From assembly GCF_001677475.2 (NCBI RefSeq), contig NZ_CP015229.1: a DNA stretch of 64,000 nt; one strand, 5' to 3'. The position numbers and the translations under genes were made by a program. Every line of letters starts with the position of its first letter. Within the stretch, counting starts at the first letter, position 1. The notes under the pieces were generated by a model that saw only the letters and a list, made by a program, of their open reading frames with translations, made no database searches and had not been told where the DNA came from. This DNA is from Escherichia coli (GTDB lineage Bacteria; Pseudomonadota; Gammaproteobacteria; Enterobacterales; Enterobacteriaceae). Below, one piece after another: positions 29,871-33,615 of this stretch.

Positions 29871-30393
29871 GAAACCTCGTGCGGTGATTGTTTTTTTGAT
29901 CTACGCAGTGATGCGTGTGTAAGTTTGCAATTCCGTTTGTTGTATTGATTTCTTTACGTTTCATGTAACTGAATTATGATAATGCTACTTTTAACTATCA
30001 CAAGATAATGGTATGTGCCCGGGAATGCACCTGCTTTATGTAGATGCGTTGATTTTTTGGATAAAAAAAACCAATTGTAAGTTTTTTTCACATTTTATAG
30101 ATACTTTAAGTAGGATAACATGCTGTTTTAACTAGCTATATGCCGGATTTGTCTGCCTGCTGAAAACCATGCCTTAGCCACCAGCACAATAATCTTACAA
30201 AAGGTCATATAAGAATAAATAGATGTTAATAATACAATGGGTTTGTAACGCGAGTATTTAAATATAATATTGCGAGCTAAGTGAAAACGTTAAGTAATTG
30301 AAATAATCTTTCATTAAAAGCGTTTCTTATTGATCGAGAAATAAGTTTTCTATTTAATGCAAATAAGTTAAGGATAAACTGGAATGAAATAAA

Positions 30394-32175
30394 GTGAGCG
30401 ATATTGTTTACCTGAGAATAATCGGTGAGAAGCAGGGCGATATTTCTTCAGGCTGTGGGACGTATGCGTCGGTTGGTAATCGCTGGCAGGTTGGCCATGA
30501 AGATGAAATTTTTGCCTTTGCACTCACCAACGCCATTACCAGTACTGGTAATGGCGTTAATCTACAGGGGCTACAATTTTGCAAACTCATTGATAAAAGC
30601 TCACCGCTACTGTCTAATGCCATCAATCAGAATGAGCGGTTATTTATTGAAATCGATTTGTATCGTATAAATAAAAGCGGGCGCTGGGAACGGTATTATT
30701 ATATTCAGCTAAGAAATGCTTCATTAACTGCTATTCATGTAAACATTTCTGACAATAATCTTCCTACCGAATGTGTAAATGTTAATTATGACTACATATT
30801 ATGCAAACATCTAATAGCCAATACGGAATTTGACTGGTTGGCCTTTCCTGCTGGCTATAATAGCTTATTTATTCCACCTAAAAACCCACCTGCCAGTAAT
30901 CTTAAGCCTGAGCCGCTACCAGTAGTTAACCTTCCACTCTCTTCACCAGCGGTTAACCCGGTCTATGCCAAATCCTGTCTGAAGGAGAAGGGATGTACAG
31001 ATGCTGGAACGGCAGAAGAACCCGCTGAAAACTTCGGTCAAGTAGCGATTTTTGCTCAGCCAGTGGTTGATGACTGCTGTGGATACCACCATCCCGAGGC
31101 TAACGATGTCGGGCAACCCACAGAAGCTCAAACCATGCTACTGTTTCCGGGGAGTGTGTTGGCGGCTCAAATATGGGGAAAATGGTCGCTCAGTGGCATA
31201 CTCAGTGCAACCCGCGGCTCTTACATCGGTGCGTTGGCATCTGCTTTGTATATTCCCTCTGCGGGCGAGGGCAGTGCTCGCGTGCCCGGACGTGATGAGT
31301 TCTGGTATGAGGAAGAACTGCGGCAGAAAGCACTAGCAGGCAGTACCGCCACCACCCGGGTACGTTTTTTCTGGGGAACTGACATTCACGGCAAGCCTCA
31401 GGTGTATGGTGTTCATACGGGTGAAGGTACGCCGTATGAAAACGTCCGCGTGGCGAACATGCAGTGGAACGAGCAGACGCAGCGTTATGAATTTACCCCC
31501 GCTCACGATGTCGATGGCCCCCTGATTACCTGGACGCCGGAAAATCCGGAACATGGGAATGTTCCGGGCCATACCGGTAACGACAGGCCGCCGCTGGATC
31601 AGCCCACCATTCTGGTGACGCCGATTCCGGACGGTACAGATACCTATACCACGCCGCCATTCCCGGTTCCTGATCCGAAAGAATTCAACGATTATATTCT
31701 GGTTTTTCCGGCGGGATCCGGTATTAAGCCCATCTATGTTTACCTGAAGGAGGATCCGCGAAAGCTGCCTGGTGTTGTAACAGGGCGCGGCGTCCCGCTT
31801 TCATCAGGAACTCGCTGGCTGGATATGTCGGTATCCAATAACGGCAACGGCGCACCAATCCCGGCGCATATTGCTGATAAATTGCGCGGACGGGAGTTTA
31901 AAACCTTTGATGAGTTTCGCGAGGCGCTGTGGCTGGAGGTGAGTCAGGATCCGGAGTTGATAGCGCAGTTTTCAAGTGGTAACCAAGCACGTATAAAACA
32001 AGGATTAACCGCAAAAGCACCTATTGACGGTTGGCATTATGGCCCTAAAGAAATAGTTAAAAAATTCCAGATACATCATCGTGTTGCAATTGAATATGGC
32101 GGCAGCGTATACGATATTGATAATTTACGAATTGTTACCCCCAGACTGCACGATGAGATTCACTACAGGAGATAA
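30394..32175 (+). CDS. Hcp-domain fusion toxin: N-terminal T6SS Hcp tube domain, Pro/Gly-rich pyocin-S-like middle region, C-terminal colicin E9-type HNH DNase domain
   Basis: 593-aa ORF with GTG start. The N-terminal ~155 aa align by eye to Hcp (DIVYLRI.GE.QGDISSG; KLIDKSSPLL...FIEIDLYRINKSG). The C-terminal ~115 aa align closely to the colicin E9 DNase domain (GAPIPAHIADKLRGREFKTFDEFREALWLEVSQDPEL ... HHRVAIEYGGSVYDIDNLRIVTPRLHDEIH, an HNH motif). Confidence 0.8.
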   Translation: MSDIVYLRIIGEKQGDISSGCGTYASVGNRWQVGHEDEIFAFALTNAITSTGNGVNLQGLQFCKLIDKSSPLLSNAINQNERLFIEIDLYRINKSGRWERYYYIQLRNASLTAIHVNISDNNLPTECVNVNYDYILCKHLIANTEFDWLAFPAGYNSLFIPPKNPPASNLKPEPLPVVNLPLSSPAVNPVYAKSCLKEKGCTDAGTAEEPAENFGQVAIFAQPVVDDCCGYHHPEANDVGQPTEAQTMLLFPGSVLAAQIWGKWSLSGILSATRGSYIGALASALYIPSAGEGSARVPGRDEFWYEEELRQKALAGSTATTRVRFFWGTDIHGKPQVYGVHTGEGTPYENVRVANMQWNEQTQRYEFTPAHDVDGPLITWTPENPEHGNVPGHTGNDRPPLDQPTILVTPIPDGTDTYTTPPFPVPDPKEFNDYILVFPAGSGIKPIYVYLKEDPRKLPGVVTGRGVPLSSGTRWLDMSVSNNGNGAPIPAHIADKLRGREFKTFDEFREALWLEVSQDPELIAQFSSGNQARIKQGLTAKAPIDGWHYGPKEIVKKFQIHHRVAIEYGGSVYDIDNLRIVTPRLHDEIHYRR

Positions 32176-32177
32176 AT

Positions 32178-32462
32178 ATGTTTAAAGAAAAGCTCCAGGA
32201 TTATACCGAGGATGAATTTCTTAATTTTTTAGGCGGATTGAGATCATCTATGAAAGATGGAAAATCCTTAAAAGGTAAGGAGCTAGAAATGTACTGGGAT
32301 TCATTAGTAGATCATTTTATTGAAATTACACAGCATCCGTCAGGGAGCGATCTAATTTTCTACCCTAAAAGTCAAGGAGATGATAAGCCTGAAAACATCC
32401 TGAAAATTGTCAAAGAATGGCGGCGTTCACAGGGGTTACCCTTGTTTAAAGACTCTAAATAA
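32178..32462 (+). CDS. Colicin/pyocin DNase immunity protein (Im9-like), cognate immunity candidate
   Basis: 94-aa ORF starting 2 nt after the toxin stop with an AGGAG RBS; DYTEDEFL and QHPSGSDLIFYP motifs match Im9 (DYTEAEFL, EHPSGSDLIYYP). Confidence 0.8.
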   Translation: MFKEKLQDYTEDEFLNFLGGLRSSMKDGKSLKGKELEMYWDSLVDHFIEITQHPSGSDLIFYPKSQGDDKPENILKIVKEWRRSQGLPLFKDSK

Positions 32463-32620
32463 AGTAGATAATAAAACTATATATGGAACATCATCGCATC
32501 TGGCTAATACGATGATATTAATGACATAAAATAATAATGTGATTGCTCTTAAAAAACAGGTAGAAATACTGAAGCCTCATTAGGTTATTTTATCATTTTC
32601 CCGCTTTTACCGATACCCTT

Positions 32621-32865
32621 TGGCTGGAGGTGAGTCAGGATCCGGAGTTGATAGCGCAGTTTTCAAGCGGTAATCAAACACGTATAAAACAAGGATGAAT
32701 CGCAAAAGCACCACTTGAAGGTTGGCATTATGGCACTAAAGAAATCGTTAAAAAATTCCACATGTATCATCGTGTTGCGATTGAATATAGTGGCGGAATT
32801 TACGATATTGATAATTTAAGGAGGGCACACCTCATTTGCATGATGAAATTTATTACAGGAGATAG
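32621..32865 (+). pseudogene. Decayed duplicate of the toxin 3-prime end (DNase-domain fragment)
   Basis: Nucleotide homology to 31931-32175 of the toxin gene begins abruptly at about 32621; translation WLEVSQDPELIAQFSSGNQTRIKQG then an in-frame TGA, and a 1-nt indel before a conserved LHDEIYYRR tail. Confidence 0.7.
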
Positions 32866-32869
32866 TTAA

Positions 32870-33160
32870 ATGTATAATTTTAAAGATAAAATAGAAGATT
32901 ACACAGAGCGGGAATTCATTGAGTTGCTTGGCGAGTTTACAAATCCAACCGGGGATAACGCTCAATTAAAAGGGGAAGAGCTTGACAAATATTGGGATGA
33001 TCTAGAAGAACATCTTACCAGAATTACACAACATCCGTTGATGAGCGATCTTATCTACTATCCTGCAAAGAAGGGAGATGATGAACCTGAAAACATCCTG
33101 AAAATCGTCAAAGAATGGCGGCGTTCGCAAGGATTGCCTTTGTTCAAAGATTCAGAATGA
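32870..33160 (+). CDS. Second Im9-like DNase immunity protein (orphan immunity)
   Basis: 96-aa intact ORF directly after the toxin fragment; DYTEREF and QHPLMSDLIYYP motifs; last 24 residues almost identical to the first immunity gene, central region divergent. Confidence 0.75.
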   Translation: MYNFKDKIEDYTEREFIELLGEFTNPTGDNAQLKGEELDKYWDDLEEHLTRITQHPLMSDLIYYPAKKGDDEPENILKIVKEWRRSQGLPLFKDSE

Positions 33161-33183
33161 ACTCTAAACAGAATCTGTCACCT

Positions 33184-33218
33184 GAAAATCATCACGTTCT
33201 GGTTAAGTGATGATTTTC
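33184..33218 (+). terminator. Perfect 12-bp inverted repeat after the second immunity gene (putative terminator or junction hairpin)
   Basis: gaaaatcatcac - 11-nt loop - gtgatgattttc, starting 24 nt after the immunity stop; no long T-run follows. Confidence 0.45.
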
Positions 33219-33567
33219 GCTACGAGAAGGTTACGGTGGCGATTGCAGTGATAATAAGCAATGTAAAAAGAAAACATAGGTAAATACTACCTTTCTCTCC
33301 TTCCCTGAACATTCATTTTACATATTAATTCATATAATTGAATTGTTATGCGTTTTATTGCTTGGTGAATCGGTTCAGAGGAAATATTTTTTCGTTTCAA
33401 TTCTGTTAATCTCACCCCTTGATGGGTAAATTTAACATTTGTGCATAGTTACAACTTTGAAACGTTATATATGTCAAGTTGTTAAAATGTGCACAGTTTC
33501 ATGATTTCAATCAAAACCTGTATGGACATAAGGTGAATACTTTGTTACTTTAGCGTCACAGACATGA

Positions 33568-33584
33568 AATTGGTAAGACCAATT
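33568..33584. promoter_or_regulatory. PdhR operator (autoregulatory site upstream of pdhR)
   Basis: Perfect palindrome AATTGGTAAGACCAATT about 30 nt upstream of the pdhR ATG, matching the known PdhR box consensus ATTGGT-N3-ACCAAT. Confidence 0.75.
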
Positions 33585-33615
33585 GACTTCGGCAAGTGGC
33601 TTAAGACAGGAACTC

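Follow-up and report, generated by a model that had tools for sequence, protein, structure and literature searches.

Gene content and boundaries of the segment between aroP and pdhR

The window, a 64 kb stretch of E. coli DNA, carries between aroP and pdhR a segment that is absent from K-12. As the earlier note had read, it encodes an Hcp-DNase fusion and immunity genes. The features of the locus are as follows.

28497..29870, minus strand: aroP, left flanking core gene (457-aa ORF)
29871..30393, plus strand: shared aroP/usp regulatory region and long AT-rich usp leader (31.5% G+C)
29941-29958: TyrR-box-like site TGTATTGATTTCTTTACG, in the aroP/usp regulatory region
30009-30014: aroP P3 -10 hexamer TGGTAT, in the aroP/usp regulatory region
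30384..30392, plus strand: two-codon mini-ORF (ATG AAA TAA), its stop 1 nt before the usp GTG start
30394..32175, plus strand: usp (uropathogenic specific protein; also Hcp-ET3-4 type), 593 aa, GTG start
30394..30843, plus strand: Hcp (TssD) tube-protein domain, residues 1-150 (PF05638, E 1.2e-12)
30844..31317, plus strand: Pro-rich linker, residues 151-308, no Pfam match
31318..31743, plus strand: Pyocin_S domain (inner-membrane translocation, IMT), residues 309-450 (PF06958, E 3.2e-40)
31771..32166, plus strand: colicin E/pyocin S2-type HNH DNase domain, residues 460-591 (PF21431, E 8e-42)
32178..32462, plus strand: cognate immunity gene, type A, 94 aa, beginning 3 nt past the usp stop
32606..32869, plus strand: decayed 3' fragment of a DNase domain (orphan toxin piece)
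32870..33160, plus strand: orphan immunity gene, type B, 96 aa, intact
33183..33219, plus strand: 13-bp hairpin ending UUUU, a possible operon terminator, always after the last immunity gene
33568..33584, plus strand: PdhR box AATTGGTAAGACCAATT of the pdhR promoter; core DNA, not island
33616..34380, plus strand: pdhR, right flanking core gene

The product of aroP is 99% identical to the annotated AroP of EC600, S87 and UTI89. Between the aroP start (29870, minus strand) and the pdhR ATG (33616) lie 3745 bp, and the corresponding gap in the K-12 derivative EC600 is 540 bp, in agreement with the approximately 3.7 kb and half a kilobase given by the earlier note. The PdhR box was also read directly at the position claimed for it, inside a segment 99% identical to K-12. 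The extra DNA is PAIusp, a small island that has already been described (PMC7142922). It is real and it is not new; the earlier note read the content of the locus correctly and did not recognise this long-known Usp island.

The limits of homology to K-12 were used to set the boundaries. Near-identical sequence (98-99%) ends at 29957 and restarts at 33426. Diverged, still alignable K-12 sequence (about 70-75%) extends inward to about 30080 on the left and begins at about 33330 on the right, where the alignment scored 66 (shuffled sequence: mean 34, sd 5.7). From these limits, the net extra DNA amounts to about 3.25-3.4 kb, and it takes the place of 40-180 bp of K-12 filler. At 41.4%, the G+C content of the gap is below that of the window (51.4%) and of aroP and pdhR (53-56%). 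The gap is a mosaic, with 31.5% upstream of usp, 39.8% over the Hcp part, 51.9-55.3% over the linker and the Pyocin_S part, 47.5% in the DNase part, and 35-39% across the immunity genes and right flank. The description of the gap as visibly more AT-rich than its flanks thus holds for its ends only, and fails in the middle of usp (52-55% G+C).

No tRNA was found across the whole 64 kb window. A search for signs of integration at the island (a tRNA, terminal repeats in direct or inverted orientation, IS ends) was negative: no direct or inverted repeats bound it, and no ORF encodes an integrase or transposase, so the absence of mobility genes noted earlier stands. The locus does not fit a classical pathogenicity or genomic island, given the lack of a tRNA, of bounding repeats and of an integrase or transposase ORF. 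PAIusp has likewise been described as lacking a tRNA, integrase and repeats and as being low in G+C (PMC7142922). To call the segment an insertion is right in so far as it is absent from K-12, but too simple, because relatives fill the same aroP-adjacent site in other genera and the junctions are diverged homologous sequence. Since the junctions are of this kind and are not clean ends, the comparison points to an old polymorphic locus that would have been moved by homologous recombination.

Usp and its promoter region

Usp of the window is identical at 579 of 593 residues (98%) to the product of the UTI89 gene that lies between aroP and pdhR, and the gene order aroP-usp-pdhR is the same in UTI89. 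Source names in the protein database read "TssD/Hcp" only and never "Usp", and for this reason the identification rests on the comparison with UTI89 and on the literature. Three Pfam domains were found in the protein (PF05638, PF06958 and PF21431) and none beyond Hcp, Pyocin_S and DNase. The N-terminal domain is, by sequence comparison, a bona fide Hcp/TssD: the match to the NCBIfam model TssD TIGR03344 scored 125 bits (cutoff 58.9, E 2e-36), and the PDB Hcp chains 6a2v, 3he1 and 5mxn were matched as well. The linker is 53-75% conserved in relatives, including those with VgrG or PAAR N-termini. The Pyocin_S domain matches PDB 3mfb. Its role in inner-membrane translocation has been demonstrated for pyocin G; for T6SS effectors, Usp among them, it has been proposed (PMC9040868). 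In the DNase domain the HH...N...H...H motif is intact, and the domain matches the PDB entries of colicins E9/E7/E2, pyocins S2/AP41 and klebicin G with E values of 1e-27 to 1e-39. The DNase activity of Usp and its requirement for the HNH motif have been demonstrated in vitro for strain Z42, together with inhibition by OrfU1 (PMC3685522).

According to published experiments, P3 is the sole promoter of usp, activated by TyrR and repressed by H-NS (PMC7142922). Its -10 hexamer TGGTAT is invariant in 4 of 4 aligned sequences (the window copy, UTI89, ATCC 25922 and K-12). The -35 is GCTACT in the window copy versus AGTACT in UTI89, the latter as published, and the final base of the TyrR box is G in the window copy instead of A. 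In a consensus scan of the region, sigma-70 sites were not above chance. The mini-ORF in front of usp is preceded by a good Shine-Dalgarno sequence, AAGGA, read directly at 30370-30374, and the alignment showed that it is kept in UTI89 and ATCC 25922.

The immunity array

Both immunity products are Im7/Im9-like. The type A protein has the same sequence (100% identity) as the first immunity protein in UTI89, S87 and SCU-172 and matches Im7, Im9 and ImAP41 in the PDB (E 1e-15 to 2.5e-20). The type B protein is 64% identical to type A and 97-99% identical to type B copies elsewhere. The orphan DNase fragment between the two genes is a direct repeat of 31915-32174 (86-88% identity); it contains an in-frame TGA at 32696-32698 and a frameshift ahead of the last HNH histidines. 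Annotations of other strains list this fragment as a hypothetical or HNH protein of 79 aa. The hairpin at 33183-33219 has a stability of -15.8 to -18.5 kcal/mol (z -2.5), and its flank is identical in 6 of 6 arrays. The terminator scan did not call it, because its loop is 11 nt long. Consensus promoter and terminator scans gave nothing above chance, and the stability of a spacer hairpin after the first immunity gene was no greater than that of shuffled sequence.

Arrays in other strains contain 2-4 immunity genes of three types. The window has the array A-B and UTI89 A-B-C, and among ST131 genomes both are present. Four PAIusp subtypes with two or three orfUs have been described (PMC3685522). 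No call among Ia, Ib, IIa and IIb was made for the window, ST131 genomes showing both A-B and A-B-C arrays. In the arrays that were read, the orphan DNase pieces all begin at the same codon, internal immunity genes all end in ...KDSK followed by the same spacer, and terminal immunity genes, whatever their type, all end in ...KDSE followed by the same hairpin flank. The type B gene is an orphan in 6 of 6 arrays, and its DNase piece is frameshifted every time. One speculative and rather doubtful reading is that the array is a cassette-exchange system with rules not spelled out for PAIusp. Given the shared start codon and the KDSK/KDSE borders, homologous recombination at two fixed anchors could then change the toxin specificity and add or remove modules, and type B would be kept only against a Usp-type DNase that no sampled E. 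coli makes. The cassette structure of the array is a small detail of the locus that may be under-described.

Similar arrangements are known from the orphan cassettes of CDI (cdiA-CT/cdiI) and Rhs systems, in which truncated toxin 3' ends lie downstream, each followed by an intact immunity gene, and a conserved border sequence permits exchange by homologous recombination. In PAIusp, however, the carrier protein (Hcp) and the toxin family differ and the arrays are very short (1-3 orphans); the likeness is one of analogy, not of membership.

Distribution, delivery and function of Usp

Universal presence of the segment at this site, which the earlier note had named as refuting its reading, was not seen: the island is present in 1058 of 5426 complete E. 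coli genomes (19.5%), always at the single chromosomal locus between aroP and pdhR, and no second or plasmid copy of its interior was found in the 5426 genomes. Where several island places were reported for one genome, these were internal cassette repeats only. The DNA of the window allele is 98-98.9% identical to the best match among these genomes, which places the allele outside the set. A relative adjoins aroP in two other genera, and relatives at the aroP-adjacent site have also been described in Salmonella bongori and S. enterica salamae (PMC7142922). In SCU-172 an IS insertion removed the Hcp part of usp, and in Superficieibacter a truncated usp is found without immunity genes. In Pectobacterium, Lonsdalea, Siccibacter and Salmonella, the Pyocin_S and DNase module has PAAR or VgrG as its fusion partner.

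The window agrees with PAIusp of uropathogenic E. coli (Z42, UTI89) in the aroP-pdhR site, the 593-aa protein with 98% identity, the immunity gene families (orfU/imu), the promoter region, the absence of tRNA, integrase and repeats, and the G+C values (usp 49%, imm 36-39%; PMC7142922). It differs in having two immunity genes (A-B) where UTI89 has three (A-B-C). The Hcp-ET effectors, which include UTI89_C0121, are Usp under another name: Hcp, a pyocin-S domain and a colicin DNase, followed by repeated immunity genes and located apart from T6SS clusters (PMC6730261). The family also has a different member, Hcp-ET1 of STEC. That literature takes the Pyocin_S domain as a second toxin ("Pyocin S3"), whereas later work treats it as an inner-membrane translocation domain (PMC9040868). 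The nuclease colicins E2/E7/E8/E9, pyocins S2/AP41 and klebicin G share homologous IMT and HNH DNase domains with Usp, and the colicin/pyocin Im proteins are homologous four-helix immunity proteins with the conserved YYP/FYP motif of helix III. Unlike Usp, these toxins are diffusible, carry domains for receptor binding and Tol/Ton translocation, and are often encoded on plasmids together with a lysis gene; in the chromosomal Usp the front end is replaced by Hcp. Usp does not fit a diffusible nuclease colicin or pyocin, given the Hcp N-terminus, the absence of any other domain and the absence of a lysis ORF in the window.

As the earlier note had stated, no T6SS genes, core genes included, were found in the 64 kb window, which is colinear with annotated E. 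coli from mraZ to the yad fimbrial genes. Far from any T6SS cluster, the orphan effector would have to rely on a T6SS encoded elsewhere, as that note had proposed. In 2 of 2 carriers checked, S87 (the closest relative) and UTI89, a complete T6SS-1 cluster lies at aspV/yafT, at a distance of about 117-120 kb and past the window end. The Hcp domain of Usp shares 40% identity with the 159-aa Hcp of the S87 T6SS-1 and 26% with the other Hcp of that cluster, values that are not decisive for naming the cognate T6SS. Usp has been named as a T6SS effector (PMC9040868); according to a review, antibacterial T6SS-dependent action has been reported for members of the Hcp-ET family, and Hcp-ET1 used T6SS-2 (PMC6730261).

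On this evidence, Usp of PAIusp is very probably an evolved Hcp, that is, a T6SS-delivered DNase with adjacent immunity. The Hcp domain would become part of the tube of a T6SS whose genes lie elsewhere (in the relatives checked, T6SS-1 at aspV/yafT), and this machine would fire Usp into neighbouring bacteria. The Pyocin_S/IMT domain may then carry the C-terminal HNH DNase across the inner membrane of the target, whose chromosome would be degraded. In the producer, the Im7/Im9-type protein of the gene directly downstream is expected to block the DNase; neutralisation by the adjacent immunity protein has been demonstrated (PMC3685522). The second immunity gene and the dead DNase fragment may be a displaced cassette that protects against a different Usp-type DNase. 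The cassette reading is drawn from the tandem, diverged repeat of DNase 3' end and immunity gene and from the 2-4-gene arrays of three types. The choice of T6SS in the source strain, IMT-mediated entry and protection by the orphan immunity gene are what we infer. Counterpoints to the mechanism are the absence of T6SS genes from the window, the low identity of the Hcp domain to the T6SS-1 Hcp proteins, the use of T6SS-2 by Hcp-ET1 according to the review, the first description of Usp as a genotoxin of mammalian cells, which is a different target, and the altered TyrR box and P3 -35 of the window copy.

It seems improbable to us that the main role of Usp is that of a bacteriocin-like genotoxin which targets mammalian cells while the urinary tract or gut is being colonised and is released without a T6SS, the island then being a virulence islet and not an interbacterial weapon. 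Activity on mammalian cells, association with pyelonephritis, prostatitis and bacteraemia, and urea-induced expression (PMC7142922, PMC3917654) speak for this explanation, as do the many ExPEC lineages among the carriers (UTI89, S88, ST131, NC101, LF82). However, the probiotic Nissle 1917 and wildlife and environmental isolates are carriers as well, and the architecture is that of an antibacterial polymorphic toxin, with a T6SS tube domain, a bacteria-specific inner-membrane translocation domain and immunity arrays with orphans. The mammalian genotoxin role and the antibacterial role of Usp are not mutually exclusive. It is highly improbable that the locus is silent or decaying in the source strain, neither expressed nor secreted and kept only by linkage or for its immunity genes: the AT-rich leader is repressed by H-NS (PMC7142922), the TyrR box and -35 are changed, and decay is seen at the locus (the IS insertion in SCU-172, the truncation in Superficieibacter, the extra stop in the orphan DNase piece), but the 593-codon usp ORF is full-length, its product retains every catalytic residue and 98% identity to the UTI89 protein that has been studied, neither immunity gene is disrupted, and the -10 hexamer of P3 has not changed.

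Because the locus, its position, regulation and biochemistry are all published, the value of the present result as a discovery is small. Its value lies in annotation, where the automated name "TssD tube protein" conceals Usp. Usp is an ExPEC typing marker and a DNase effector, and it may shape competition among E. coli in the gut and urinary tract.

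Identity of the usp locus

The segment between aroP and pdhR is a two-immunity-gene variant of the known PAIusp island, whose toxin gene usp is also named as an Hcp-ET effector. Its features are as follows.

Features of the aroP-pdhR segment in the window
28497-29870, minus strand: aroP ORF
30394-32175: usp, a 593-aa ORF with three Pfam domains (T6SS_HCP, residues 28-139; Pyocin_S, residues 309-450; Col-Pyo_DNase, residues 460-591)
32178-32462: type A immunity gene, 94 aa, Im7/Im9/ImAP41-like, starting 3 nt past the usp stop codon
Between the two immunity genes: decayed DNase piece, directly repeating the final ~260 nt of usp in diverged form (86-88% identity)
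32870-33160: type B immunity gene, 96 aa, 64% identity to the type A protein
33616: pdhR start

Usp scored above the curated NCBIfam cutoff for TssD. Its N-terminus matched Hcp chains in the PDB and its middle part matched PDB 3mfb, while the C-terminus matched the DNases of colicins E9/E7/E2, pyocins S2/AP41 and klebicin G (E 1e-27 to 1e-39) and has kept its HNH residues. The protein is identical to that of uropathogenic strain UTI89 at 579 of 593 positions. Rihtar et al. (2020) described a ~4 kb island carrying usp and imu1-3 in the aroP-pdhR intergenic region of all usp+ E. coli as well as of S. bongori and S. enterica salamae, without tRNA, integrase or direct repeats, with usp at 49% G+C and the imu genes at 36-38%, and with Hcp, S-type pyocin and colicin nuclease domains in Usp (PMC7142922). 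Zaw et al. (2013) showed that Usp acts as a non-specific DNase, that this activity depends on its HNH motif and that OrfU1 inhibits it; they put the number of PAIusp subtypes at four, with two or three orfUs (PMC3685522). In a paper on the Pyocin_S domain, "Usp, uropathogenic specific protein" appears as a T6SS effector of Hcp/Pyocin_S/DNase architecture (PMC9040868). Since UTI89_C0121 is listed as "Hcp-ET3-4" in a review (PMC6730261), Usp and the Hcp-ET effector are one gene under two names. Given the UTI89 match and this literature, the locus is already known in all main points; the observation of the earlier note was confirmed and its interpretation is supported.

The region upstream of usp aligns with that of UTI89. 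The published -10 of the aroP promoter P3 (TGGTAT) is invariant, and the published -35 (AGTACT) is found in UTI89, whereas the window has GCTACT (29985-29990). The last base of the TyrR-box-like site at 29941-29958 is G in the window (TGTATTGATTTCTTTACG) and A in K-12 and UTI89. These differences may change how usp and aroP are regulated in this strain. A two-codon mini-ORF (ATG AAA TAA, 30384-30392, within 30370-30396), with a good Shine-Dalgarno AAGGA, stops 1 nt upstream of the usp GTG start and is kept in UTI89 and ATCC 25922. A role in coupling or limiting Usp translation is possible. The Hcp-coding part of usp contains a perfect 30-nt palindrome at 30529-30558 (AACGCCATTACCAGT/ACTGGTAATGGCGTT).

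Edges, composition and distribution of the segment

The aroP-pdhR gap is 3745 bp in the window and 540 bp in the K-12 derivative EC600, in agreement with the ~3.7 kb and roughly half a kilobase claimed earlier. In BLAST and global alignment, 98-99% identity with K-12 extends on the left as far as 29957 and resumes at 33426. Inward of the left edge, the K-12 and window haplotypes are diverged yet alignable to about 30080. On the right they are likewise diverged but alignable from about 33330 (local score 66; shuffled sequences average 34, sd 5.7). The true indel is ~3.25 kb of window sequence, opposite which K-12 has a few tens of bases. ORF, tRNA and repeat searches of the window bore out the claim that mobility genes are absent: no integrase or transposase ORF and no tRNA were present in the window, and no repeats bounding the segment were found. 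The PdhR box was confirmed where it had been placed.

The predicted AT-richness held for the gap as a whole (41.4% G+C versus 51.4% for the window) but not throughout, as the interior is a mosaic: 31.5% in the leader, 39.8% in the Hcp part, 51.9-55.3% in the linker and Pyocin_S part, 47.5% in the DNase, and 35-39% in the immunity genes and right flank.

At sites differing between K-12 and UTI89, aroP alternates between the two patterns (28000-29960). The left flank is such a mosaic, K-12-like at 29868-29928 and UTI89-like from 29947. The switch between 29928 and 29947 suggests recombination breakpoints at the very edge of the island.

Of 5426 complete E. coli genomes, exactly 1058 matched the Hcp part, and the same number matched the island interior, at one chromosomal locus every time and never on a plasmid; in the remaining genomes the site is empty. 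Universal presence, named earlier as evidence against an insertion, is excluded. Carriers include UTI89, S88, Nissle 1917, ST131, NC101, LF82 and ATCC 25922. Identity to the window allele nowhere exceeded 98-98.9%, so this allele is missing from the 5426 genomes. In E. coli SCU-172 (L008, 2874-5358), ISKpn26 (IS5-like) stands in place of the usp leader and Hcp domain, leaving an N-terminally truncated Pyocin_S-DNase pseudogene and three intact immunity genes.

Relatives outside E. coli were scanned with one genome per species. A full-length usp relative adjoins ampE-aroP in Enterobacteriaceae bacterium UBA5654. Superficieibacter sp. 1612_C1 (L018, 6001-7217) has a truncated relative between aroP and pdhR, which is a decayed copy at the equivalent site in a different genus; its Hcp is 84% identical, and it stops inside Pyocin_S, with neither DNase nor immunity gene. 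Full or partial relatives occupy different intergenic sites of the core genome, next to gltA/sdh in Citrobacter sp. On2M (L010) and after thiQ in MGYG-HGUT-00110 (L011); in neither case does a T6SS or mobility gene lie within 6 kb. A protein search added relatives in Salmonella, Citrobacter, Kluyvera and Pseudocitrobacter, and found the Pyocin_S and DNase module joined to PAAR or VgrG in Pectobacterium, Lonsdalea, Siccibacter and Salmonella. Because of the relatives in other genera and the diverged junctions, the segment fits an old polymorphic locus spread via homologous recombination rather than a site-specific insertion.

The immunity gene array

Six arrays were compared.

Order of immunity gene types in six PAIusp arrays
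Window, S87: A-B
UTI89, SCU-172: A-B-C
ATCC 25922: C-A-B
Strain 1450: A-B-C-B

These gene orders are already covered by the subtype literature. In all six, the orphan DNase pieces have an identical start codon position (MSQYPELIAQF) and the immunity proteins all have a nearly invariant final stretch of 25 residues. Internal immunity genes have a KDSK ending and one spacer; the last gene always has a KDSE ending and a constant flank bearing a 13-bp hairpin (z -2.5). We did not find these junction rules stated in the subtype literature, the 2001-2006 papers lying outside our coverage. The array is similar to the orphan cassettes known from CDI and Rhs loci.

The decayed piece in the window has a TGA at 32696-32698 and a frameshift ahead of the final histidines. 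This in-frame TGA is absent from the counterparts in S87, UTI89, strain 1450 and ATCC 25922; the near-end frameshift is common to all type-B-linked fragments. The piece preceding the type A gene in ATCC 25922 is 94% identical to the active DNase end of the window, with the frame kept, and looks like a displaced former toxin end.

T6SS context and proposed mode of action

From mraZ to the yad fimbrial genes, the window and the annotated genome of its closest relative, E. coli S87, are colinear. No T6SS genes occur among the colinear genes, which upholds the claim that the window holds no other T6SS genes. Toward its end (53199-64000), identity with S87 drops to about 95% across can-panB, and homology stops at 61226; past this point, divergent fimbrial subunit genes occupy the yad position (61265-63867, minus strand).

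S87, the closest carrier, and UTI89 have a complete T6SS-1 cluster at aspV/yafT. Lying some 117-120 kb away from usp and past the window end, it holds tssA-C, E-H, J-M, tagH, VgrG and two Hcp genes; its tssL carries the annotation icmH/DotU. The Hcp domain of Usp is 40% and 26% identical to the two Hcp proteins of this cluster, values that do not single out the cognate T6SS machine.

Control by P3, TyrR and H-NS, DNase activity and immunity have already been shown in the literature. In the mechanism we propose, the Hcp domain of Usp would be built into the tube of a T6SS, and Usp would be delivered to a neighbouring cell, where it would cross the inner membrane by way of its Pyocin_S/IMT domain. 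Such passage was demonstrated for pyocin G and has been proposed for T6SS effectors (PMC9040868). The Usp literature presents the protein as a genotoxin against host cells, a possible role that is compatible with the T6SS-delivery model, in which Usp would degrade the DNA of the prey cell.
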